DNA from: Vampirovibrionales bacterium
GTDB taxonomy: Bacteria; Cyanobacteriota; Vampirovibrionia; Vampirovibrionales; JAJTHC01
Assembly: GCA_046341215.1 (NCBI GenBank)
Contig: JBKDRU010000005.1
Coordinates: 79,233-143,232 of the forward strand
Reading direction: 5' to 3'
Length of the DNA: 64,000 bases
A program made the position numbers and the translations under genes. Below the pieces are notes generated by a model. That model was not told the DNA's origin. It searched no databases and saw nothing but the letters and a program-made list of their open reading frames with translations. Position 1 is the first letter of the stretch. Each line of letters opens with the position of its first letter. Shown piece by piece: positions 7,511-44,258 of this stretch.

Positions 7511-9124
7511 ATGTGGACAAAACCCGAAATTTCTTTTGATGCAGAACCCTTGGCTTTTCACACGGTTACTTTAGAAGACTTGCCTCACGCTCAATTGGTG
7601 CATGAAAATGTGGATTTTCTCAATCATTTAAGACATCTTAAAGCCCTGTCTTCAGAAGATCGCTTGGGGCTTTACAAAGGCGAAGAAACAGGCTATGGCG
7701 TTGAAGAAGCGATTGCCACCTTGTATGCAGGGCATCAATTCGGATATTTCAACCCTCAACTAGGCGACGGTCGTGCCGCGATTGTCGGAACCGATGAAAA
7801 CGTCCCGATTTCACAGTTTTTCCCAAAAGCCTTTCAACATTTAGTAAACGACTTCATCCACCGAAAAAAAGAACAAGGCAACAGCGAATGGGCATTCGGC
7901 GCCTTTGATTTCTTTGAAAAACCCACATCGGTTGAATTGCAATTGAAAGGTTCAGGCATCACCCCCTACTCTCGAAGTGGGGACGGCAAAGCGGTTTTAC
8001 GGTCTTCGGTGCGTGAATACTTGGCTTCTGAAGCGGTGTTTCAACTCGGCATCCCCACCACACGAGCCGTGGCTTTGGTGCATGACGCTCAAACGCCTGT
8101 GTATCGAGAAACACGAGAAAGTGCTGCGATGGTCTTGCGAGTCGCCCCGTCCTTCTTGCGTTTGGGGCATTTGGAGTATTGGGGGCGTCACGGATACGCC
8201 GAGCGTCTAACGCCTTATATCGCCTATCTTTTCCGCACGTTTTTCAAAACCGAAGGCATTGATTTTTCGCCTGTTCAGCAATTGCAAGCCGTTTTAACGA
8301 TTTCAGCGATCCTAAATGCGGTGACGATGGCTCAATGGCAAGGCGTTGGCTTTTGTCATGGCGTCTTGAATTCGGACAATATCTCGCTGCTTGGAATGAC
8401 CCTTGACTACGGGCCTTACGGCTTCTTGGATGCCTTTGACATGGGGCATATCTGCAATCATAGCGATCACGGCGGGCGTTATGCCTATAAAAACCAGCCA
8501 GCGATTGGCTTGTGGAATTACAGCCGTCTGCTCGAAGCGTGCCAAGATTTTGTCGGTAACGATGAAGATTACCAAGCCTTGAAGGAATCGATAGAAGGCA
8601 CCTTTCAAGACGCTTTTAATACCAGCTTTTTAGCGGTGTATCGCCAAAAGCTTCGCATGGAAGACCGAAAGCTTATTCCTGATATTGAGTTTGGCGAAGT
8701 GCTTAAAAGCCTGTTGGCGTACTTGCATCAAAACAAGCTGGACTACACACGCTTTTTCACAGCGTTACCAGCGTGGGAAACAGCCTTTCAAAATGAAGAG
8801 ACTCCCCATGTGGCGGATATTGAACGCCTTGCGATGGGGATCGCTTCGCCTGAAGCGGCGTGGTGGTTGCACGAGATTTACGCACCGTACTTGCAGAAAA
8901 ATGCCTTAAGCGGAGCCTCTCAAACGCTGGTGAATCCGACTGTTGTGTTGCGGAATCACATCGCCCAAGCCTTGATTGAAGACGCCCAAGCTAATCGTTT
9001 CGATGCCTTTTCTGAAGGTTTTACACGCCTTCAAACGCCGTTTGATGAGGCTCATCATGCTCACGACTGGGCGAAAGTTCCTCCAGCATCGGCGAAAGAA
9101 ATTTGCGTGTCTTGCTCATCTTAA
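7511..9124 (+). CDS. selO: Protein adenylyltransferase SelO (YdiU/UPF0061)
   Basis: The N-terminal signature YAGHQFGYFNPQLGDGRA and SelO kinase-like fold motifs are present. The C-terminus is CVSCSS, the Cys counterpart of the Sec-containing C-x-x-U tail. Confidence 0.9.
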   Translation: MWTKPEISFDAEPLAFHTVTLEDLPHAQLVHENVDFLNHLRHLKALSSEDRLGLYKGEETGYGVEEAIATLYAGHQFGYFNPQLGDGRAAIVGTDENVPISQFFPKAFQHLVNDFIHRKKEQGNSEWAFGAFDFFEKPTSVELQLKGSGITPYSRSGDGKAVLRSSVREYLASEAVFQLGIPTTRAVALVHDAQTPVYRETRESAAMVLRVAPSFLRLGHLEYWGRHGYAERLTPYIAYLFRTFFKTEGIDFSPVQQLQAVLTISAILNAVTMAQWQGVGFCHGVLNSDNISLLGMTLDYGPYGFLDAFDMGHICNHSDHGGRYAYKNQPAIGLWNYSRLLEACQDFVGNDEDYQALKESIEGTFQDAFNTSFLAVYRQKLRMEDRKLIPDIEFGEVLKSLLAYLHQNKLDYTRFFTALPAWETAFQNEETPHVADIERLAMGIASPEAAWWLHEIYAPYLQKNALSGASQTLVNPTVVLRNHIAQALIEDAQANRFDAFSEGFTRLQTPFDEAHHAHDWAKVPPASAKEICVSCSS

Positions 9125-9163
9125 AAGGATAAGGTTCCCTGTTTTTTGGATGTTTCGCTCCGT

Positions 9164-9300
9164 TTTTAGCTGGTCGTCGTCAGAGACCTTTGCTCCGCCA
9201 AAGGTCTCCAACACCTCTAAAGGCGGTTCAAGGGGGGACGGGGAAGGACGTATTGCGTTTCTCCTCCCCTTCGTCCCCCCTTGAAAATCCCCCCTGAATC
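9164..9300 (+). repeat. Truncated copy (A) of a hairpin-rich repeat element, relative of 41465..41695
   Basis: About 120 bp (9167..9283) are near-identical to the reverse complement of 41580..41695. The matching blocks are TAGCTGGTCGTCGTCAGAGACCTTTGC, ..CAAAGGTCTCCAACACCTCTAAAGGCGGTTCAAGGGGGGACG.. and ..CGTCCCCCC. Only one terminal repeat is retained. It lies just downstream of the selO stop. Confidence 0.8.
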
Positions 9301-9451
9301 CCCACCTCGTCGCATCATTCCTTTGCACGACGTCCGCAAAATCGCTCGGGGATTCGCAATTCGCTCACCCGCTCGGATTTAGTGCTTGGACGCCTGCTGG
9401 TGCAACGATCCTTTAAATCAACAATTTTATCTAAAAAAGGAAATTCTAAAG

Positions 9452-9907
9452 ATGGATATAACGATTTGGATTGACGCCGATGCCCTACCTTCCGTGTTGA
9501 AGGACTACATTATTAAAATGGCTCGTAAGCGTGAGGTACCGACTGTTTTTGTGTCGAACAAAGCCATCGCCGTGCCTGATCATCCTTTGTTTCAGGCGAT
9601 CCAAGTGGGTCAAGGAGCCGATGTCGCGGATGCCTACATTGTGGAGCAAGCTCAAGCTGGCGACCTCGCCGTAACGCAAGATGTTCCCTTGGCTGACTTA
9701 CTGGTGAGCAAAGGCGTTTCAGTGATTAACTTGCGGGGCGAAGCCTTTACGCCGACGAACATGAAGGGTCGTTTGGCGGTGCGTGATTTTATGAGCGACT
9801 TACGCAGTGCAGGCGTTCAAACAAAAGGCCCTAAACCCTTTGATGAAAGGCAAAAACAAGCCTTTATGAATGGATTTGACAAAGCATTAACGCAGTGTTT
9901 AAAGTAA
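9452..9907 (+). CDS. yaiI: UPF0178 protein YaiI (DUF188)
   Basis: IWIDADALP, FVSN, DVADAYIV, GDLAVTQDVPLA and LRDFM line up with E. coli YaiI along its whole length. The start is placed at the internal MDITIW methionine. Confidence 0.8.
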   Translation: MDITIWIDADALPSVLKDYIIKMARKREVPTVFVSNKAIAVPDHPLFQAIQVGQGADVADAYIVEQAQAGDLAVTQDVPLADLLVSKGVSVINLRGEAFTPTNMKGRLAVRDFMSDLRSAGVQTKGPKPFDERQKQAFMNGFDKALTQCLK

Positions 9908-31276: not shown

Positions 31277-32245
31277 ATGAACTTTCCTTCTCTTGCAGTG
31301 CATCCCTTAATTTTCCCCAGTCAACATAAGACGTCTTTGACTCAAGCGTCTCCCGCAAAACGTGTTTCACCGTCACCCTTGTCGCAACGTCTGGGGGTCA
31401 CATTTGTAAATGAAGCGGGGGGAATTTTAACCAAAGCCGATGCTTATAAACGATTAATAGACTTTTTTTCTCACAATCTCAATGCTGTTTTAGAAACTTA
31501 TCTAAGTGGTAGAACCCCACCCACAGAAAAAGAACTAAAAACTTGGTTGGGTTTGCTTGAAGCAGATTTTGAAAACAAAGCCCGTCTTTTGGCAGCACTT
31601 CCCGATGAAATTAAGGTTCGGATTTCATTAGGAAGCGATCCTATATTGACCTTATATGAGCGAGAAGTCGATTTCAAGACTTTAAGAGATTGTATCGATA
31701 CTGCTCTCAAGGCAGGTAATGGCTCTTCCTACACAAATGCACTGAAATATAATATGCCATCTGACACAGATCCTAATATGATGGTTCCCATTATTTCGAT
31801 AATAGATGATAAAGGGAATCTGCCTTTTATAACTCATCATCTTAGGTTCCATGCGGTAACTAAGAACATTCCTTATAATCCCAAATTTAATCGCCTCATG
31901 CTCCAATTTACCGAGCTCCTGGGACTATCCAGAAGAACTTCCCCTAAAACTAAACAGCCTCAGTATTGGTGGACTTTTCACCAAGTAATGGCGTCTCCTA
32001 TTCATAAACGCATCCCCAAAGAGAAGATAGCTGAAACACCTTTAATGCAAGAATGGAGTTCACGTAAAAACCGAACCACACTAAGTATAGAACTCAATAA
32101 ATTATCCAGAACAGAAACTCGTTCCATCTCTACATGGATTTGGGACATATTGCGTGAAAGGATGCCAGACTACTCTTTGTCAGGAATAGCGACCCTGCCA
32201 CAAAGAGAGCTTCCCAAAAAGCTCCCTCTCCCAGCTCCTAAATAA
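31277..32245 (+). CDS. Hypothetical ORFan (322 aa)
   Basis: The ATG was verified. The N-terminus is Ser/Pro/Thr-rich with no hydrophobic signal. No motif was recognised. Confidence 0.45.
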   Translation: MNFPSLAVHPLIFPSQHKTSLTQASPAKRVSPSPLSQRLGVTFVNEAGGILTKADAYKRLIDFFSHNLNAVLETYLSGRTPPTEKELKTWLGLLEADFENKARLLAALPDEIKVRISLGSDPILTLYEREVDFKTLRDCIDTALKAGNGSSYTNALKYNMPSDTDPNMMVPIISIIDDKGNLPFITHHLRFHAVTKNIPYNPKFNRLMLQFTELLGLSRRTSPKTKQPQYWWTFHQVMASPIHKRIPKEKIAETPLMQEWSSRKNRTTLSIELNKLSRTETRSISTWIWDILRERMPDYSLSGIATLPQRELPKKLPLPAPK

Positions 32246-32646: not shown

Positions 32647-35283
32647 TTAAACGGCTTTTTTGGAAGGCGTTGGCTTTTGAGTCAAGGCATACATCAACGC
32701 GGCTTCTTGAGGCGTCAGTTGCTTGGGTACGTTTGTCGCTTGTGAAGCCGTCGGGTTTTTCGCCTGTTGAGCCAAGGCGTATAACAAGGCGGCTTCCTTG
32801 GGGTCAATGTCTCGAACCTTTTTTGTGCCAGCCAAACGATAGGCTTCTTCGATTTGGGCAGGCGTCAAGGTGATTTTTTCTTTTGTGGACGCTTCAGGAT
32901 ATTTGGCAATTAAGGCAATATCTTCTTTTTTAATCGAACTAAACTCGCGATCTTTAATCGCTTTAAGGGTTTCTCTAGCTTTGTCACGCTCTTCGTATTC
33001 GACCAAATACGTGGGTTTGCCCACAGTCTTGTCTTGAATCGTTTCCACCCCTTTACGTAGTTTGCCTGCTAAGAGGAGTTGACCTCCCAGTCCAATGATA
33101 ACACCCGCCCCTGTCAACCAGTGAAAGCCTGCCACGACAAAGGGGAGTTTAAAGCTCGTCAAATAATGCCCCCCCATCAGCTTACCCAAACGATTGCCTC
33201 GGTTCAAGAACACCATCAACTGATGACCACCGATCATCGGCAAGGCAATGCCTAAACAGGCTCTTAAACCTGCTTTAATTTGTTCACCCAAGACAAAGGG
33301 CTTTTCAGCAGGCTTTTGGACTTCAGTGGTTTTAGCGTCTTTACTTTGAGGCTTGGCTTGGACGTTGTCTGGGACGTTGGCTTGAAGAGGTGGCGTAGAC
33401 TTTGCTTGGGGCGCTTTTGTTTTAGACGGCTTACCTGCGGCCATAAATGCCGCCCAGCCCGTACTAAAGGCGGTCACGGCTCCTAAGAAGAACATTAGAT
33501 ATCTTGGTTGAGCTAAACTCTTCAGCATACCAAGCAGCGGATTATGACCCCCCTTGCTCAAGTCAGACATCGCTATGGCTTTCTTTTTCAAGACTTCTTC
33601 AGGCTGTTCATGCAAGGCAAACTTTGCCATATCAATGACGCCACGCCACACGGAAGCCACACCACGTCCTAAACCACTCACGCCCCACGCTTCAGAAAGT
33701 TCTTTCTGATTATGAATGAATTGTTCATGTTCAGAGATGTTTTGCATTAAACGTTGAATCGAACGTGGCAAGACATCGTGGAGTTTTTTAAAGGCTGTTA
33801 AACTTTTTTGAGCATGGTTACTAAACTCCCCATTGAGTTTAAAGAAATCATTCACCGTCATTTTCTTCGAAGGATCTAACGCTGCAATGTGTTTTTCAAC
33901 CGCTTCTTTGCCCAACAAAGCTTCCCAATGGGCTTGATTACGGGTGATTTCTTGCAGAGCCGTGCTTCTTAATTCTACGAGCTTCGCTTCAGGTGTGAAA
34001 ATTTTAGAAAAATAACGACTGAATGGCAGGACTAAATTTTTATCCCCCACCTTTTTTAAACGAAAAATAGACGATTGTATATCTTTAACTTGAAGCAACT
34101 GGGGGTTATGTTCCAACGCCTTAACTTGTGCAGGCGTCATAGATTTGGCGGTATCGATATTCATATGTTCGGGCGACCAGAACCAACGCTGTCCTCCCTT
34201 GTAAAGGTCTGAATGAATTTGGTGTAAATAGGCGTGCTTCACGCTCGGCGGATTGACTCCGTTTACATACGCAATGACGGCTTTTTGAAGTTCTTTGACG
34301 GCGTCTGAATCATTAGGCGCACCTTCTAAAATAACCTTCATTTGTTGAGGACACTGTTGAATAAAATCATCAAACTGAGTTAAATATTCAGGATTCTTAT
34401 CTCTTCCCAAAACACTCAGGAGTTTGGATTTGGAGAATTTTGACATCGCTTCAGGCGAACCAGACGCCTTAGCGTTCGCTAAGGCTTCTTCAAATACGGC
34501 TTTAAAGTGATGATAGAGGTTTTGGTCTAACGCCTTATTTTCCTTGCCTTGGGTTAAAAAGCCTTTGGCATCTGCTTCAAGGAAGGGGTTCATCAACGTC
34601 GTAGTCACATGCCGATGCTGTTCAGGCGTCATGATTTGTTCAAAACGTTCGTAATAATCGTGATGGGTAGTCGCTTCTTTCAGCGTTTGATGCAAGTTGT
34701 TATAATGGGCAATATAGCGTTCTATCAAAGAATCGGGAGCAAGAGTTACCCCTGTTTTAAGCTTATTGGCCGTCGCATTGAAGGCATGTTCATGATTGCC
34801 AAGCCAATAACGGTTGTATTCATCGGAAGGCAGGTCGCCTAGGTACGCACGCATCCATGTAGGCAAGTTTTTAAAACTACCTTCTTTAGGCGTCCAGCCA
34901 TCTATCCATCTGGCGAAACCTCCCAAAAGGGTATTATGCGCGGTTTTTTTATTAAGGGGATTAATGGTTCCTAAGTTGGGATCCAAGCCCGCCAAGCGAT
35001 TAGCGATATTCGTAAACGCCAATAGAGAAACGAGTCCTAAGCCAATAGCAGCGCCTTTTTCGGGGTAAGACAAGCGTTCAGACGATTCTGGATCCATGAA
35101 CTGCATGGTCAGTGCAAGATCAAAGGCCTTTTTAGCCAACGAATCGCCTACTTCTCCCGCGTTTTCAAGTTGTTGTTGAACTTGATCTTGAGCGTTGTTT
35201 TGCACGTTTTTCATGGCTTGTAAGTGATTTGAATTTGTCGGAAAGTTCGGACTGCTTGATGAACTGGTATTAATCGATGCCAT
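32647..35283 (-). CDS. Large hypothetical protein (878 aa) with internal hydrophobic segments and C-terminal tandem repeats
   Basis: The N-terminus is Ser/Asn/Thr-rich (MASINTSSSSSPNFPTNSNH). There are three hydrophobic stretches, including a ~60-aa Gly-rich double-helix-like segment. The C-terminus carries two tandem copies of the motif (P/T)xEAAL(L/M)YAL(A/T)Q. Confidence 0.6.
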   Translation of the reverse strand: MASINTSSSSSPNFPTNSNHLQAMKNVQNNAQDQVQQQLENAGEVGDSLAKKAFDLALTMQFMDPESSERLSYPEKGAAIGLGLVSLLAFTNIANRLAGLDPNLGTINPLNKKTAHNTLLGGFARWIDGWTPKEGSFKNLPTWMRAYLGDLPSDEYNRYWLGNHEHAFNATANKLKTGVTLAPDSLIERYIAHYNNLHQTLKEATTHHDYYERFEQIMTPEQHRHVTTTLMNPFLEADAKGFLTQGKENKALDQNLYHHFKAVFEEALANAKASGSPEAMSKFSKSKLLSVLGRDKNPEYLTQFDDFIQQCPQQMKVILEGAPNDSDAVKELQKAVIAYVNGVNPPSVKHAYLHQIHSDLYKGGQRWFWSPEHMNIDTAKSMTPAQVKALEHNPQLLQVKDIQSSIFRLKKVGDKNLVLPFSRYFSKIFTPEAKLVELRSTALQEITRNQAHWEALLGKEAVEKHIAALDPSKKMTVNDFFKLNGEFSNHAQKSLTAFKKLHDVLPRSIQRLMQNISEHEQFIHNQKELSEAWGVSGLGRGVASVWRGVIDMAKFALHEQPEEVLKKKAIAMSDLSKGGHNPLLGMLKSLAQPRYLMFFLGAVTAFSTGWAAFMAAGKPSKTKAPQAKSTPPLQANVPDNVQAKPQSKDAKTTEVQKPAEKPFVLGEQIKAGLRACLGIALPMIGGHQLMVFLNRGNRLGKLMGGHYLTSFKLPFVVAGFHWLTGAGVIIGLGGQLLLAGKLRKGVETIQDKTVGKPTYLVEYEERDKARETLKAIKDREFSSIKKEDIALIAKYPEASTKEKITLTPAQIEEAYRLAGTKKVRDIDPKEAALLYALAQQAKNPTASQATNVPKQLTPQEAALMYALTQKPTPSKKAV

Positions 35284-35483
35284 AAGAAAAACCTTTATGC
35301 GTTAGCATGCCCCCTTCGTGAAAGTGACGAAGGGATGTCTATATACAAGCATTAACACAAATTCTACTCTACTTGTTGCTAGTGAAAAGGTGAGGGGGGC
35401 TCAAAAGATGTCAGATCCCCTTATCCGTTTTGACGAATTTAATCGATTTAAGCCTGTTAGATGTAAAGATACAGGTCATTTCC

Positions 35484-35622
35484 GACACACGAAACCCCTG
35501 TTTTTGACACACGAAACCCCTGTTTTTGACACACGAAACCCTCTTTTCTGACACACGAAACCCTCTTTTCTGACACACGAAACCCTCTTTTCTGACACAC
35601 AAAACTCTCTTTTTTGACACAC
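35484..35622. repeat. Tandem array of 22-bp direct repeats (6 full units plus a partial 7th)
   Basis: The units are 2x GACACACGAAACCCCTGTTTTT, 3x GACACACGAAACCCTCTTTTCT, 1x GACACACAAAACTCTCTTTTTT, then GACACAC. Each unit ends in a T5-6 tract. The array sits in the 616-bp divergent intergenic region 35284..35899. Confidence 0.9.
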
Positions 35623-35962
35623 ACTCACGACGGGAAAGAGAGGGAAAGGGCTCCCAAAGGAGCCAAAAGGGTCGGTTTTTAAGGAGCTACTCTTCTTCAT
35701 TATGACCGCAATTTAAAGCCTTGCCTAGTGACGAAACACCATGTTTTTCTTCGAAGTAAGTGAATTCATAAAATGAGATTGTTTTTTTAATATAACAATT
35801 TGTTAACATTTAGCAATTCGTAGCTTTATAAATTGTTTATTAAAGCATAAGACACAAATAAAGTTCTTTTGTCTAAATACCCCCAAAACTAGCTTTTCGT
35901 TGCTCTATTTATTCTTCTTTATTAAATTTCCCTGTACACCTCACATGAAAGGATCACTTAAG

Positions 35963-39219: not shown

Positions 39220-41442
39220 ATGCACGGCATTCCTAAAAAACGATACGGCGAACTCATCACACAAAAAGGTGTTCCTTACCCATTGGGGGCGTCTTATGAT
39301 GGTTGTGGCGTCAACTTTGCGATTTTTTCTTCCACTGCAAGCAAGGTCGAACTCTGCTTCTTTGACGGCATAAAGGCTCGCAGGGAATCCATTCGCATTC
39401 CCCTTAACACCAAAACCAATCATGTGTGGCATATTTATATTGAAGGCTTACAACCTGGGCAATTGTACGGCTATCGTGTTCATGGGGCGTATGACCCTGA
39501 ACATGGGCACCGATTCAACCCTCGCAAAGTGCTGTTGGATCCTTATGCCAAATCCGTGGCTCGTCAAGTGAAAGATATTGATGTCCTGTACGGCTATAAA
39601 GTGGGGCATGCCAAGCAAGATTTTGCCATTGACAACCGAGATTCCGCCCCTTATGCTCCCTTGGGTGTTGTGATTGACGACGCCTTTTCCTGGGGAGATG
39701 ATGCCCCCCCGCACATCCCGATGGAAGACACGATTGTGCTTGAATCCCATGTTAAAGGCTCCACGATGCTCAATCCAGCCTTGCCTGCTGCCATGCGAGG
39801 CACTTACGCCGCCTTGGGTAGCGATGCCATGATTCAATACTATAAAGAACTCGGCGTTACCACGATTGAGCTGTTGCCTGTTCATGCCTTTATTGATGAG
39901 CCGCATTTAAAAGACACGGAGCTGGTGAACTATTGGGGCTATAATACGCTCAACTATTTTTCACCGCATCCCTATTATGCGATGACCAAAGATCCGCATG
40001 AAGTCGTGCGAGAGTTTAAATCCATGGTGCGCAGTCTGCATAAAGCAGGGCTTGAAGTCGTGTTGGATGTCGTCTACAATCACACCTGCGAAGGCAACCA
40101 TATGGGAGCCACCTTCAGCTGGAAGGGCATCGACAATCAAGCCTATTACCGCACCGTGCCTGAATCAAGCCGTTTTTACATGGATTTTACAGGTTGTGGC
40201 AACACGCTCGACAGCACCAGCCCGCCTGCGTTGACGATGATTTTAGATAGCCTGCGGTATTGGGTGAGCGAAATGCACGTCGATGGATTCCGCTTCGATT
40301 TAACGTCCGCCTTAGCCCGTGAACACTTTGATTTTTCCACCAAATCTTCCTTCTTTCAAGCCATCGCCCAAGATCCTATCCTCAAGCGAGTCAAGCTTTT
40401 TGCTGAGCCGTGGGACACAGGCGTTGGGGGCTATCAGGTGGGTAACTTCCCCTTAGGATGGTCGGAATGGAACGGCCGTTACCGAGACACCTTACGAGCC
40501 TTTTGGAATCAGCAACACGCCACGCTCAACCAGTTGGCGACTCGTTTGGCAGGCTCAAGCGATTTGTTTCAGCATAACGGCAGGCATCCGTATAATAGTC
40601 TCAATTTTGTAACCTGTCACGACGGCTTTAGCTTAGAAGACTTGGTGAGCTATAACGGAAAGCACAACGAAGCCAACGGCGAAAATAATCGAGACGGCAC
40701 CAACGACAACCGCAGTTACAACGGCGGAGTAGAAGGCGTCACCTCAGATGCGAAGGTGAAAGCCGAACGTCAGCGTCGTAAACGTAATTTAATGACGACC
40801 CTGCTCTTTTCCATCGGAACACCCATGATTTTAGCAGGCGACGAACTCAGCCGTACCCAACAGGGCAATAACAACACCTATTGCCAAGACAACGAACTTT
40901 CTTGGTTGGATTGGGACTTTGAAAATAATCCTGAGAAACGAGACTTCTTTCAATTTACTTGCAAAGCCATTGAAGTACGGCAAAGCCTCGCAGCCTTCAA
41001 ACGCCGCACCTTTTTCACAGGCACGCCCAGTCCGAAAAGTGGCATTCCTGATGTCACCTGGTGGCGCGCCACAGGCAAGCCCCTTTCCATTGAAGATTGG
41101 CATAACCCCAGCCTGCGGTGCATGGGTTTGTTGATTGACGGCAAAGCGAACCGCAAGTTTTGCGACAACCCTAACGCCGATTTTTCAAGCGTTTTATTGA
41201 TCATTAACGATCAACCCAATGATGAGCAGTTTTACTTGCCGACGCATCGTAGTGACCAAACCCCTTGGGAAGTTTTGCTGGATACCGCTTCGCCTAATGG
41301 ATCGCCACGCTTTGAGCAGATCGAATGGATGCCTCACACGCTCTTTCCCATTCAAGCGAAGAGTGTGGTCGTCTTAAAAATGAAGACGCCACCGCCGAGT
41401 GGGGGCTTTGGCAAGGGCTTATTTTTGACGTCGCTTGTTTAA
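39220..41442 (+). CDS. glgX: Glycogen debranching enzyme GlgX (GH13 isoamylase-type)
   Basis: The N-terminal CBM48 pattern (PLGASYDGCGVNFAIFSS..VELCFFD), GH13 catalytic regions (GFRFDL, EPWD, FVTCHDGFSL) and overall length fit GlgX/TreX. Confidence 0.9.
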   Translation: MHGIPKKRYGELITQKGVPYPLGASYDGCGVNFAIFSSTASKVELCFFDGIKARRESIRIPLNTKTNHVWHIYIEGLQPGQLYGYRVHGAYDPEHGHRFNPRKVLLDPYAKSVARQVKDIDVLYGYKVGHAKQDFAIDNRDSAPYAPLGVVIDDAFSWGDDAPPHIPMEDTIVLESHVKGSTMLNPALPAAMRGTYAALGSDAMIQYYKELGVTTIELLPVHAFIDEPHLKDTELVNYWGYNTLNYFSPHPYYAMTKDPHEVVREFKSMVRSLHKAGLEVVLDVVYNHTCEGNHMGATFSWKGIDNQAYYRTVPESSRFYMDFTGCGNTLDSTSPPALTMILDSLRYWVSEMHVDGFRFDLTSALAREHFDFSTKSSFFQAIAQDPILKRVKLFAEPWDTGVGGYQVGNFPLGWSEWNGRYRDTLRAFWNQQHATLNQLATRLAGSSDLFQHNGRHPYNSLNFVTCHDGFSLEDLVSYNGKHNEANGENNRDGTNDNRSYNGGVEGVTSDAKVKAERQRRKRNLMTTLLFSIGTPMILAGDELSRTQQGNNNTYCQDNELSWLDWDFENNPEKRDFFQFTCKAIEVRQSLAAFKRRTFFTGTPSPKSGIPDVTWWRATGKPLSIEDWHNPSLRCMGLLIDGKANRKFCDNPNADFSSVLLIINDQPNDEQFYLPTHRSDQTPWEVLLDTASPNGSPRFEQIEWMPHTLFPIQAKSVVVLKMKTPPPSGGFGKGLFLTSLV

Positions 41443-41464
41443 TTTTGGATTTCTAGCTTTTTTT

Positions 41465-41695
41465 GTAGCTGGTCGTTGTCAGAGACCTTTGCTTTCTAGC
41501 TTTGGCTAGCTCCGTTTAACGCTGGTGCTTGGGGGTCTTTGTGCCGCCAAAGACTCCCCAAACCCCCAAAGCGGCTTAAGGGGGGACGAAGGGGAGGAGA
41601 AACGCAATGCGTCCTTCCCCGTCCCCCCTTGAACCGCCTTTAGAGGTGTTGGAGACCTTTGGCGGAGCAAAGGTCTCTGACGACCGACCAGCTAC
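41465..41695. mobile_element. 231-bp MITE/REP-like element with 28-bp terminal inverted repeats (copy B, full length)
   Basis: The left terminal repeat is GTAGCTGGTCGTTGTCAGAGACCTTTGC (41465-41492). The right terminal repeat is GCAAAGGTCTCTGACGACCGACCAGCTAC (41667-41695). Inside are hairpins (GGGGTCTTTG...CAAAGACTCCCC) and the G-rich/C-rich palindrome GGGGGGACG...CGTCCCCCCC. Its right half is the reverse complement of 9167..9283. It encodes no ORF. Confidence 0.8.
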
Positions 41696-41786
41696 AAAAG
41701 GAGATAGAAATCCAAGAAACATAACACACCATATCCATAAAATACGATATAATAGACGTATCTCGTTTTTTTAAAGGTCACCCCTC

Positions 41787-42851
41787 ATGCACGATGCTTC
41801 CCTCGATTTCCTAGAAAAACCAAGTCTCCACGCCTTCTATCACGCTGATGTGTGGACGGCGTCTTACGCAGGGAAGAAGGTACTCGTCACAGGAGCAGGT
41901 GGCTTCATACCGTCGCACCTCGTCGAAGCCCTCGTGCTGGCGGATGCTCACGTCACCGCCCTCGTCAAATACAACGGAGCCAGCGATATCGGCAACCTGC
42001 GTTACCTGCCTGACGCCTTACGCCAAAATATCAACATCCTGTTTGGCGATGTCACCGATGCCTTTATGATGCACCGCCTCGTCAAATCGCAAGACATGGT
42101 CTTTCATCTCGCTGCCCTTATCGGTATTCCCTACTCGTATTTAGCGCCGCAACATTATGTGAATACCAACATTCAAGGCACGCTCAACATCCTAGAAGCT
42201 TGTCGTGACAAGGATATTCCCGTGGTGCAGACGTCCACCAGTGAAACCTACGGTACCGCCATTTACACGCCGATCGATGAAAAGCACCCCTTGCAAGGGC
42301 AGTCGCCGTATTCCGCGTCTAAAATCGGGGCGGATATGCTGGCGGAAAGCTATTTTAGAAGTTTTGAAACCCCTGTTTCCGTGATTCGTCCCTTCAATAC
42401 CTTTGGACCTCGGCAATCCGCACGCGCCTTTATTCCCACCGTGATTCAACAAGTATTATACAGCGATGCCTTGCGTGTCGGGAGTTTAGACCCCCAACGA
42501 GACCTTTCCCCTGTGTGGGACACGGTTCGGGGCTTCCTTGCGGTGGGAGCAAACCCGGTGTCTCGTGGGGAAGTGATTAACATCGGCAACGGTAAGACGC
42601 AGAGCATGCGGGATGTCCTTCAGCAGATTTTGCGATTAACCGACAAAGAAGACTTACCCATTTTGGCGAATGAAGCGGTAAGGGTGCGTCCTGAAAAAAG
42701 CGAAGTGCAAGTGCTGTTGGGGGATACTACTAAGGCGAAAACCCTGCTGGGGTGGGAGCCTAAGCTCACGCTCGAAGAAGGGTTGAGACAGGCGATCGCC
42801 TTTAGCAAAGCCCATCCGTCGCATCAAGGCACGGCAGGCTATGCGGTTTAG
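41787..42851 (+). CDS. NAD-dependent epimerase/dehydratase (extended SDR)
   Basis: The Rossmann motif VTGAGGFIPSHL and the catalytic YSASK (YxxxK) are present. Confidence 0.8.
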   Translation: MHDASLDFLEKPSLHAFYHADVWTASYAGKKVLVTGAGGFIPSHLVEALVLADAHVTALVKYNGASDIGNLRYLPDALRQNINILFGDVTDAFMMHRLVKSQDMVFHLAALIGIPYSYLAPQHYVNTNIQGTLNILEACRDKDIPVVQTSTSETYGTAIYTPIDEKHPLQGQSPYSASKIGADMLAESYFRSFETPVSVIRPFNTFGPRQSARAFIPTVIQQVLYSDALRVGSLDPQRDLSPVWDTVRGFLAVGANPVSRGEVINIGNGKTQSMRDVLQQILRLTDKEDLPILANEAVRVRPEKSEVQVLLGDTTKAKTLLGWEPKLTLEEGLRQAIAFSKAHPSHQGTAGYAV

Positions 42852-42873
42852 ATTTTTAGCGTCACTACGTCGA

Positions 42874-44160
42874 TTACTTACGCTTCGTTGCCAAGGCTTT
42901 ATTCAGCTTCTCCTGCTTTGCCCAAGACGCCGAGGCGTCTTTTAAGGCTTGCTTAAAGGCAGGTTCCACATAAGCAGGGGGCATGTAACGTTTCACCCAC
43001 CCGATCGCTGTTTGCCGAGCCTTCGCATCATTCAGCAAAATATCCACACCTGCCCCCTTATCTGGGTACAAACTCAAGGATTTCACCGCTTCCGTAATAC
43101 GAAAGAGCTTTTGCGTGTCCGCATAACTCATTTGTTCGCTTTGGCTTGCCATGTATAAAATGGGTACATGGCTATTCATTACCGAAAGAATGGGACTGAT
43201 TTTCTTAGTTTCCAGCCTCGCACCGATGCTCACCACCGCTTTGAGATGCACATCTTTTTCGGCAGCTCTCACCAATAAGGCATTGGCGCTAATGCCTTCG
43301 GCGATGATCGCCATTTTTTGAGGCAGCACTTCTAAAGGGAATTTTTCTGCATCCAGTTCAGGGTGCTTAAAGTAATGTTCCACCCGTTTAAAGTCTTTGG
43401 TGAGTTGCGTCCAATCGGGTTGGGTGAAAATACGCCACGATTTTACGCCTCCGTATGCCAAGCCTTCACTGATGCCATGCCCTCGTACGTCTAAAAGCAA
43501 GACGGCATAACCTGCTTTGACTAAATCAGGCACCAAGAATTGCAAGCGTTTGCCTGAAGACGACAAGCGATGCGTCACCACTACCAAGGGGTATCGATAG
43601 CTGGGTAAAGGGCGAGCAGGCGGGGCTTTAGGCTTGGCAGGGCTTTCACCTTCTTCACCTTCAGCGTCTTCACCTTCTTCTGCACTGGCTTCTTCTTCGG
43701 GAGCCTCTTCTTCAGCGACGTCTTCCCCTTCTTCTCCTTCAGCAGGTGCGACCGCTTCGACAGGGGGCTTGGCTTTCAAGGCTTGCACTTCGCCATAAGG
43801 GCTATATAAATCCCCTTGTAAAACAAAGCCATCTACAGTCGTCCAGCTTAATCGGGTGGGGTGGTAGTCTTCGGCAAGCGTGTATCTTAAATGTGTTTCA
43901 ACAGGCGGTGGAGGCGGGGGAGCAGGCTTTTTAGTTTCACCCTCTTCGCCTTCTTCTTCACCCTCTTCGCCTTCAGCTTCAGCGTCTTCTCCTTCTCCTT
44001 CTCCTTCAACTTCTTCAGAACCTTCTTCTACAGGCGGTTTCGATCCAGGTAATTCGCATCCGCTTAAAAAAACAGGAACGCTCGTTGCCAAAAACAACAG
44101 TAGCAGGACACTAGAGCGTCCTACGATTTTTAAGAAACTGTCTAAAAAAGAGCGGTTCAT
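42874..44160 (-). CDS. Lipoprotein, alpha/beta-hydrolase fold with poly-acidic Glu/Gly/Ala linkers
   Basis: A lipobox LSGC follows a hydrophobic signal when the start is taken at MNRSF (44160); the ORF extends to 44238. There are two low-complexity acidic tracts (EEVEGEGEGEDAEAEGEEGEEEGEEGE and GEEGEDVAEEEAPEEEASAEEGEDAEGEEGE). The C-terminal part has an alpha/beta-hydrolase-like core (LLLDVRGHGISEG). Confidence 0.55.
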   Translation of the reverse strand: MNRSFLDSFLKIVGRSSVLLLLFLATSVPVFLSGCELPGSKPPVEEGSEEVEGEGEGEDAEAEGEEGEEEGEEGETKKPAPPPPPPVETHLRYTLAEDYHPTRLSWTTVDGFVLQGDLYSPYGEVQALKAKPPVEAVAPAEGEEGEDVAEEEAPEEEASAEEGEDAEGEEGESPAKPKAPPARPLPSYRYPLVVVTHRLSSSGKRLQFLVPDLVKAGYAVLLLDVRGHGISEGLAYGGVKSWRIFTQPDWTQLTKDFKRVEHYFKHPELDAEKFPLEVLPQKMAIIAEGISANALLVRAAEKDVHLKAVVSIGARLETKKISPILSVMNSHVPILYMASQSEQMSYADTQKLFRITEAVKSLSLYPDKGAGVDILLNDAKARQTAIGWVKRYMPPAYVEPAFKQALKDASASWAKQEKLNKALATKRK

Positions 44161-44258
44161 GGCGATGTTCCATGTTATGATGGTGGAAACTACTTCCTTC
44201 TTCGACTCTAAAAACACGCCGATACACCCGCCCCCCACAAGTAGAGGAGTCCCTTCTT

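Follow-up and report, generated by a model that had tools for sequence, protein, structure and literature searches.

The BOX element of Streptococcus pneumoniae is built as boxA-boxB(n)-boxC (PMC3049150). Repetitive extragenic palindromes (REPs) are imperfect palindromes of 20-40 nt with a GT(A/G)G head, linked to REP-associated tyrosine transposases (RAYTs), and bacterial interspersed mosaic elements (BIMEs) alternate regularly in orientation (PMC2817692). Bacterial MITEs (miniature inverted-repeat transposable elements) include Correia of Neisseria and Nezha of cyanobacteria (PMC3049150; reviews, PMC3184786, PMC10969869). Here we analyse two hairpin-rich intergenic elements, copy A and copy B, in a 64,000-nt stretch of a Vampirovibrionales genome (assembly GCA_046341215.1, contig JBKDRU010000005.1, positions 79,233 to 143,232, forward strand), which as a whole we call the window. 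To judge from sequence comparison, copies A and B probably belong to an undescribed family of non-coding, hairpin-rich, modular interspersed repeats of the Vampirovibrionales (Melainabacteria) clade, a family comparable in kind to MITEs, BIMEs and BOX and behaving like non-autonomous mobile DNA. This is the first description of repeat content in Vampirovibrionales genomes, no earlier report having been found in the literature: a full-text search gave nothing relevant on repeats or MITEs in Vampirovibrionales or Melainabacteria.

Two window copies and the repeat unit they share

An earlier note on this DNA had described two inverted copies of one element, one downstream of selO and one downstream of glgX, and both the copies and their neighbours are confirmed: comparison of the window with itself gives an inverted repeat of 107 nt, 99% complementary, at 9176-9282 and 41578-41684, and Pfam matches identify the two flanking genes as selO and glgX. 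The sequence GTCAGAGACCTTTGC has three exact occurrences in the window, each at these inverted-arm ends, and AAGGGGGGACG has four, none of them outside the two copies; with one mismatch allowed, AAGGGGGGACG gives five matches against 0.83 expected, a number reached in none of 100 shuffles. The single-strand fold of copy B reaches -167 kcal/mol (z = -14.4), and that of copy A has z = -4.7 to -5.4.

The two copies are members of a larger family. A scan of one genome per species with a 23-nt head pattern, GCTGGTCGN{1,5}GTCAGAGACCTTTGC, found 83 stretches, in about seven metagenome-assembled genomes (MAGs) labelled Vampirovibrionales and in one labelled Gammaproteobacteria (JBEISK01). For comparison we used 678 kb of sequence around family copies, all of it from MAG or metagenome assemblies, whose loci are cited here by L number. 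Module BLAST mapped 124 head-bearing units, comprising 86 solo units, at least 16 convergent (tail-to-tail) doublets and no divergent pairs; longer alternating arrays were absent from the 124. The element is thus not confined to the two window loci, and its description as a multi-copy, non-coding, hairpin-rich family stands: indels between module variants are not multiples of three, overlapping open reading frames (ORFs) are mechanical only, and the mapped units, small, numerous and 250-400 nt long, have the dimensions of MITEs, which stay below ~600 bp. The closest SelO relatives also carry Vampirovibrionales names. JBEISK01 ('Gammaproteobacteria bacterium Sample-107-S80-bin-40'; loci L003, L007, L016, L041 and others) is probably mislabelled, because it has the same repeats and its loci reach 95% nucleotide identity to Vampirovibrionales MAGs. 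In searches for a phage or plasmid source, viral contigs gave no exact match, and phage and plasmid collections gave none by blastn.

Copies aligned side by side, together with module BLAST, define a unit of 250-400 nt in which the following modules stand in fixed order and polarity:

Head: one or more M1 repeats of ~31 nt, TTGGATTTCTAGCTCCGTTTTTAGCTGGTS
M2: hairpin of 10 bp, AGAGACCTTTG-CTCCGC-CAAAGGTCTC, or its compensated variant h1
M3: linker after M2 or h1
M4 slot: a long GC hairpin, of which there are at least five unrelated versions (M4a-e), with AAGG...CCTT closing it in every case
M5: between M4 and M6 or the tail
M6 (optional): 114-nt module with three hairpins
Tail: M7, M7' or M7d+M7

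The head consensus is (T/A)TAGCTGG, GTAG being seen in copy B only. Each of the five M4 sequences forms a long hairpin when folded (-28 to -42 kcal/mol, z -5.8 to -10.5), and the M4 type mostly pairs with the tail type (M4b with M7, M4c with M7', M4d with M7d). Recombinant combinations are also present, and the family is therefore a set of recombining subfamilies.

Read against this module order, both window copies differ from their earlier description. Copy A had been taken for a truncated copy ending near 9300, but similarity to family members spans 9130-9435: copy A and L073:5678-5982 are 95% identical over 306 nt, with unrelated flanks at L073, and BLAST depth against other family loci rises to as much as 110 across 9132-9437. 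By its module map, copy A is a complete, polar solo unit of ~305 nt (9130-9434). Copy B had been described as a 231-bp MITE with 28-bp terminal inverted repeats (TIRs). The palindromic element exists, but its imperfect symmetry covers 271 nt (41445-41715), with outer arms paired over ~50 nt (41445-41493 and 41667-41715) and thus longer than 28 nt; and the assignment as a TIR-bounded MITE gives way before L033 and L084, which hold two complete tail-to-tail units at the orthologous site. In copy B the left unit (M1, h1) passes at the common AAGG border straight into M4a of the right unit, and an extra 52-nt M1-type unit is bounded by GCTGG direct repeats. On this module evidence, copy B is two opposed units, heads out and tails in, with the centre lost, and it has apparent TIRs because the heads of the two opposed units form its ends. 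The features of the two copies are as follows:

9130-9434, + strand: copy A, complete solo unit with M1, M2, M3, M4a, M5, M7 and a partial right terminus, from the module map
9123-9129, + strand: left 7-bp direct repeat AAAAGGA, overlapping the selO stop codon TAA (9122-9124)
9435-9441, + strand: right 7-bp direct repeat AAAAGGA, likely also the ribosome-binding site of the DUF188 gene (ATG at 9452)
9142-9175, + strand: M1 head of copy A, TTTTTTGGATGTTTCGCTCCGTTTTTAGCTGGTCG, an outer part that is less conserved (79-84% between copies)
9176-9282, + strand: core common to copies A and B, containing M2 (hairpin, 9182-9209), M3 (linker) and M4a (hairpin, 9230-9282)
9301-9408, + strand: M7 tail module of copy A, from module BLAST; M7 recurs at many loci
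41445-41715, no strand: copy B, read as a collapsed inverted doublet, its two units fused where the central hairpin has its AAGG border
41445-41577, + strand: remnant of the left unit of copy B, with M1 head, 5' arm of M2, extra 52-nt M1-type unit, h1 and linker
41531-41559: h1 hairpin within the left remnant
41578-41715, - strand: remnant of the right unit of copy B, reversed, with M4a (41578-41630), M3, M2 (41651-41678) and M1 head

Presence and absence at orthologous gene junctions

Each copy lies at a gene junction that can be compared with its orthologues in related genomes. The neighbouring genes, identified by Pfam, are:

7511-9124: SelO, upstream of copy A
9452-9907: DUF188/YaiI, downstream of copy A
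39220-41442: GlgX-like debranching enzyme (CBM48 and alpha-amylase), upstream of copy B
41787-42851: epimerase/dehydratase, GDP-mannose-dehydratase-like, downstream of copy B

At the selO-DUF188 junction, stop codon and ATG are separated by 13 nt (TCATCCTAAAAAGGACTGTTTCATGG) in L085, L086 and L087 and by 327 nt in the window; SelO identity to the window is 79% for L085 and L086 and 85% for L087. The window junction reads TAA-AAGGA (AAAAGGA, 9123-9129), 305 nt, AAAAGGA (9435-9441) and AATTCTAAAG-ATG, and the three empty sites have TAAAAAGGA once only. Copy A is, on this comparison, an insertion relative to the related genomes. The two closest relatives keep the flanks of the window around other fillers, bounded by 4-6-bp repeats of the same target: L084 (SelO 91% identical) has an element of a second type, R2, at the junction, and L108 (SelO 94% identical) has a third repeat family, X, with hairpins of the CCCTCTCC...GGAGAGGG type. 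Three close relatives thus have three different repeat families at the selO site. The third family, with hairpins CCCTCTCC-TTGA-GGAGAGGG and CCCCTCCCCTTTAAGGGGAGGG, was also observed more widely (L108:2044-2234, L069:6118-6260, L075:1136-1225): in the closest relative of the window it stands at selO-DUF188, and elsewhere it occupies sites that hold doublets of the main family in other genomes. The possibility that the element supplies the SelO C-terminus was considered and rejected, the end TGC GTG TC(T/G) TGC TCA TC(T/C/A) TAA (CVSCSS*) being present in element-free orthologues as well.

The glgX-epimerase junction shows a comparable range of states. In L089 (GlgX 82% identical) there is an 8-nt overlap between glgX and the epimerase gene, leaving no element there; L033 and L084 have a full tail-to-tail doublet of ~520 nt at the orthologous site; L088 (GlgX 90% identical) has a solo unit followed by mutS; and L019 has a short palindromic form. 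Copy B likewise is, from the junctions compared, an insertion relative to related genomes, and no direct repeat that could be a target-site duplication (TSD) is visible at copy B. Further cases come from other loci: L005, L008 and L039 have a unit upstream of obg that L036 lacks; L006 and L034 have a doublet that is missing from L051; and M6, present in L054 and absent in L041, was gained or lost independently inside an unrelated hairpin. Presence/absence polymorphism at orthologous sites, a property by which MITEs are recognised, is thus found for the family. The 13-nt spacer at 42852-42864, between the epimerase gene and a minus-strand gene (42874-44238), is itself an 'empty' site: L033 has 548 nt there, with a small reverse-strand ORF and hairpin repeats of the GGGAGAGGG type.

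These comparisons also bear on whether the copies, or the palindromic form of copy B, could be artefacts of mis-assembled MAG repeats, which we consider extremely unlikely. What speaks for an artefact is the L084 contig: in contrast to the window and L033, it has DUF188 joined directly to a doublet and the epimerase gene, a join at a repeat that could be chimeric. Against it, the same modules and architectures are found in several independent assemblies from different studies, the parts joined at the copy B fusion share only ~9 nt, too short for a jump by a k-mer assembler, and orthologous copies are present at the glgX site in four genomes. The L084 arrangement is an observation in its own right: at L084:5234-5843 DUF188 is followed directly by a full doublet and the epimerase gene, and in the window, within 41443-41786, and in L033 the doublet stands after glgX, ~32 kb from DUF188. 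Either the sequence was rearranged, with the repeat as breakpoint, or the assembly is chimeric.

Taken as non-autonomous mobile DNA, the units would insert into the few tolerated bases between genes, either alone, as at copy A, or as tail-to-tail doublets; recombination between common module borders would then reshuffle and delete units, and copy B would be such a doublet after loss of its centre, a loss that would leave apparent TIRs. A far more speculative extension, which we regard as very unlikely, sees in the units more than selfish DNA: a scaffold, itself conserved, whose 'hairpin slot' (GGCGGTTCAAGG, hairpin, CCTTGAAAATCC) takes up interchangeable GC hairpins. A site-directed process would bring the units, together with the R2 and X families, into the few bases that separate a stop codon from the ribosome-binding site after it. 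Operon junctions would then be rewired in the manner of cassettes (-10 boxes, RNA hairpins), driving synteny breaks in Melainabacteria, and a recombinase targeting hairpins or palindromes might run such a system.

Conservation, termini and possible mobilisation

The most constant part of the unit is its interior. The 55-nt M2-M3 core has at most two mismatches in 65 of 88 copies, its conservation holds across genomes whose orthologous genes differ by 10-30%, and by column conservation the outer M1 head is far less conserved. M2 and h1 differ by double compensatory changes at three of ten stem pairs, with 96.5% of cells paired. Because the interior is strongly conserved and the stems covary, the alignments show a constraint on hairpin structure and core sequence. 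Its source is possibly recognition by the mobilising machinery or, by analogy with REP/BIME and BOX elements (PMC2817692, PMC3049150), an RNA-level effect when the unit is transcribed in an operon.

A subset of units (L011:1573-1935, L040:5364-5716, L051:6546-6867, L078) has inverted termini of 22-40 nt, the left reading TATAGTGTTTT(C/A)TA...AAGTGG... and the right being its complement, ending ...AAAACACTATA; these termini start with TATAGTG. TATAGTGTTTT, an 11-mer, occurs 81 times in the 678 kb with at most one mismatch, versus ~11 expected by our own estimate. The same TATAGTG termini bound R2, a separate 150-nt element with an intact copy at L030:3842-3992 whose ends are TATAGTGTTTTATAGATAAAAT, inverted. 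The window has one R2 copy, which is an insertion, the orthologous junction in L087 being a 5-nt spacer:

1972-2121, - strand: decayed R2 copy, BLAST depth 36, between the genes at 1300-1974 and 2143-2613

At the right end of copy B a decayed terminus now reads TATAAT, ~40 nt before the epimerase ATG. As for a TA duplication at TATAGTG ends, the 'empty' orthologous sites hold unrelated filler or partial palindromes. For the TATAGTG motif there are three candidate readings, namely a true TIR (which may carry a TA duplication), a target palindrome and a promoter-like -10 element. Stand-alone palindromes of ~28 nt, TATAGTGTTTTATCTATAAA(A/G)(C/T)ACTATA, were observed at L006:~2488-2515, L083:6909-6936, L056:5577-5604 and other loci, 30-115 nt ahead of genes with the same orientation; these could be promoter or operator sites, minimal elements consisting of a terminus only, or insertion targets.

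Conservation and hairpin structure are also what a host-selected, RNA-level element would offer, that is, hairpins that stabilise mRNA or take part in its processing, insulate neighbouring genes from one another or serve as small RNAs, transcribed within operons or from their own TATAGT-like ends, with mobility secondary. In its favour, the core is more conserved across species than neighbouring coding DNA (copy A and L073 are 95% identical, versus 88-91% for orthologous genes), the stems covary, one M6 hairpin has a UUCG-type loop (ATTCAC-TTCG-GTGAAT), all five M4 variants keep the hairpin shape, and the termini have -10-like TATAGT or TATAAT hexamers, among them the TATAAT just described upstream of the epimerase gene. 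We nevertheless judge it improbable. With gene orientation called by a codon-usage filter on ORFs, 67 units are co-directional with neighbouring genes and 50 opposite, all four gene configurations being present, and an orientation rule relative to genes is rejected on this nearly random split. Orthologous sites are empty or hold unrelated repeat families, so that no flanking gene depends on the element. A terminator role, raised in the earlier note, lacks consensus support, no hairpin in copy A or B being followed by a T-tract, and intrinsic terminators and sigma-70 promoters inside either copy are rejected for lack of a consensus, the lone terminator match of the B region lying inside glgX on the minus strand. 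Both strands of copy A fold well, and about equally, with M6 and M7 folding better on the minus strand; the choice of strand from folding was not used as evidence, the copies being near-identical and the minus strand G-rich. Rfam at the gathering threshold gave two tRNAs only in the window and nothing in four loci with full units or R2, and a known structured RNA is rejected, a permissive Rfam scan having given only sub-threshold miRNA-like hairpin noise. Nearly random orientation, the lack of a terminator or promoter consensus, folding of both strands and close relatives that are without the element or have a different one in its place together speak against a role dedicated to regulating the flanking genes. 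For mobile units, by analogy with REP/BIME and BOX, co-transcribed hairpins would act on the host only secondarily, for example by stabilising or uncoupling operon mRNA.

Mobility as a non-autonomous element, which the earlier note had proposed, holds to the extent that both window copies are insertions relative to related genomes, and falls short in that no cognate transposase, whether IS630-like, IS200/IS605-like or other, was found around the copies. An enzyme acting in trans would mobilise the units, and a transposase recognising the TATAGTG termini seems slightly more likely than a hairpin-recognising HUH enzyme. The latter would correspond to a REP/BIME-REPIN type of element, in which a single-copy HUH tyrosine transposase (RAYT or an IS200/IS605-like TnpA) recognises the conserved hairpins (M2/h1 and tail) and moves units or doublets in single-stranded form, with neither TIRs nor TSDs. 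Such a system would account for the frequent inverted doublets and missing divergent pairs, as in REPIN doublets, for a stem kept by compensatory change and for interior hairpins more conserved than the ends; a DDE-type autonomous partner was not seen, and a single-copy RAYT would easily be missed in the 678 kb examined. We regard it as rather improbable all the same, since membership of the REP type, also suggested in the earlier note, fails on size and shape: the units are ~300 nt long with four to eight different hairpins, not palindromes of 20-40 nt with a GT(A/G)G head. Moreover, a 7-bp direct repeat flanks copy A and full-length copies have TIR-like termini. No rayt (Y1/HUH) gene flanked by two inverted copies was seen in the sequence around the copies, and no transposase-like gene lies between inverted copies, the ORFs between convergent units being short and without an obvious HUH motif by eye, with no Pfam run on them.

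Several observations weigh against our reading of the family as non-autonomous mobile DNA. The interior core is the most conserved part and the outer termini the least, the reverse of a typical MITE, a pattern that hints at selection on the interior. Copy A has no TATAGTG on either side and copy B has none on the left; because they lack these termini, the two copies may owe their arrival or their present form to recombination and not to transposition. The TATAGTG motif also stands alone 30-115 nt upstream of co-oriented genes, and so may mark something other than a terminus. The AAAAGGA repeat at copy A is A-rich and overlaps a Shine-Dalgarno-like motif, and could be a coincidence; elsewhere there is no clean TSD, and most 'empty' sites hold short unrelated filler. 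An all-against-all comparison of the 558 predicted proteins around the copies gave orthologues only and no multi-copy family, and the genes between paired TATAGTG motifs are housekeeping genes without a transposase (glutamate dehydrogenase, a prolyl-tRNA-synthetase-like gene, a glycosyltransferase and one gene without a Pfam match). Scanning metagenomes with the terminus gave 17 short contigs, which had R2 copies only and no autonomous element; an autonomous insertion sequence (IS) with matching ends was found neither in these contigs nor in the 678 kb around the copies. Finally, MAG and metagenome assemblies, from which all comparison data come, handle repeats poorly.

The window has further features. 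A 600-nt gap, from the end of one gene at 35283 to the start of another at 35900, contains six to seven tandem 22-nt repeats (..GACACACGAAACCC..) at 35454-35629, and similar arrays are present in L006, L009, L030 and L073. Inside the minus-strand ORF 42874-44238, at 43638-44048, degenerate repeats with a period of 15 nt (CTTCACCTTCTTC...) would give the protein an acidic, repetitive stretch. A 322-aa ORF of atypical composition (31277-32245) lies in a 1.3-kb gap without a gene call by the codon-usage filter.

Genomic consequences and comparison with described repeats

The interest of the family is moderate and lies mainly in genome evolution and assembly in Melainabacteria. Operon junctions that measure 13 nt or overlap in some genomes are 300-600 nt of stable hairpins in others, and breaks in synteny fall at the elements (after glgX comes the epimerase gene in some genomes and mutS in another; after DUF188, in L084, the epimerase gene). 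The inverted cores of copies A and B, 99% identical and 32 kb apart, are a ready substrate for inversion. The family explains why MAGs of Vampirovibrionales fragment or mis-join at intergenic sites, its repeats flag spurious ORFs inside them, and the elements offer markers for strain typing, because one junction holds different fillers in close relatives.

Among described repeats, the comparison with Correia and Nezha concerns small size, non-coding sequence, copy number and insertion polymorphism, together with the TIR-like termini that full-length copies have in common with R2, a possible short TSD and -10-like hexamers at the ends. Unlike these MITEs, many copies of the present family, including copy A, are without termini, and the interior is more conserved than the ends; the inverted ends of copy B come from two opposed units and are not TIRs of an element, and no parent IS was identified.

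With REP, BIME and REPIN sequences the family has in common an extragenic location in short operon spacers, palindromic structure with stems kept by compensatory changes, mosaics and inverted doublets, and a consensus conserved across related species. It differs from REPs and BIMEs in being a polar string of ~300 nt made of different hairpins that pairs only convergently, in having a possible TSD and TIR-like termini, and in that no RAYT was found.

The likeness to BOX, a comparison of architecture only, is that of composite, modular, non-coding intergenic repeats with variable tandem internal modules (here the M1 units and the optional M6) between conserved ends; a relationship in sequence was not seen, the two not having been compared directly. 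Like BOX, the units would be strongly base-paired when transcribed, number about one hundred or more copies per genome, differ in length between strains at one locus, and are often clustered or nested with other repeat families. Unlike BOX, they are larger (250-400 nt), have a GC-hairpin slot with at least five alternatives, form obligate tail-to-tail doublets, and belong to a host of the Melainabacteria lineage.

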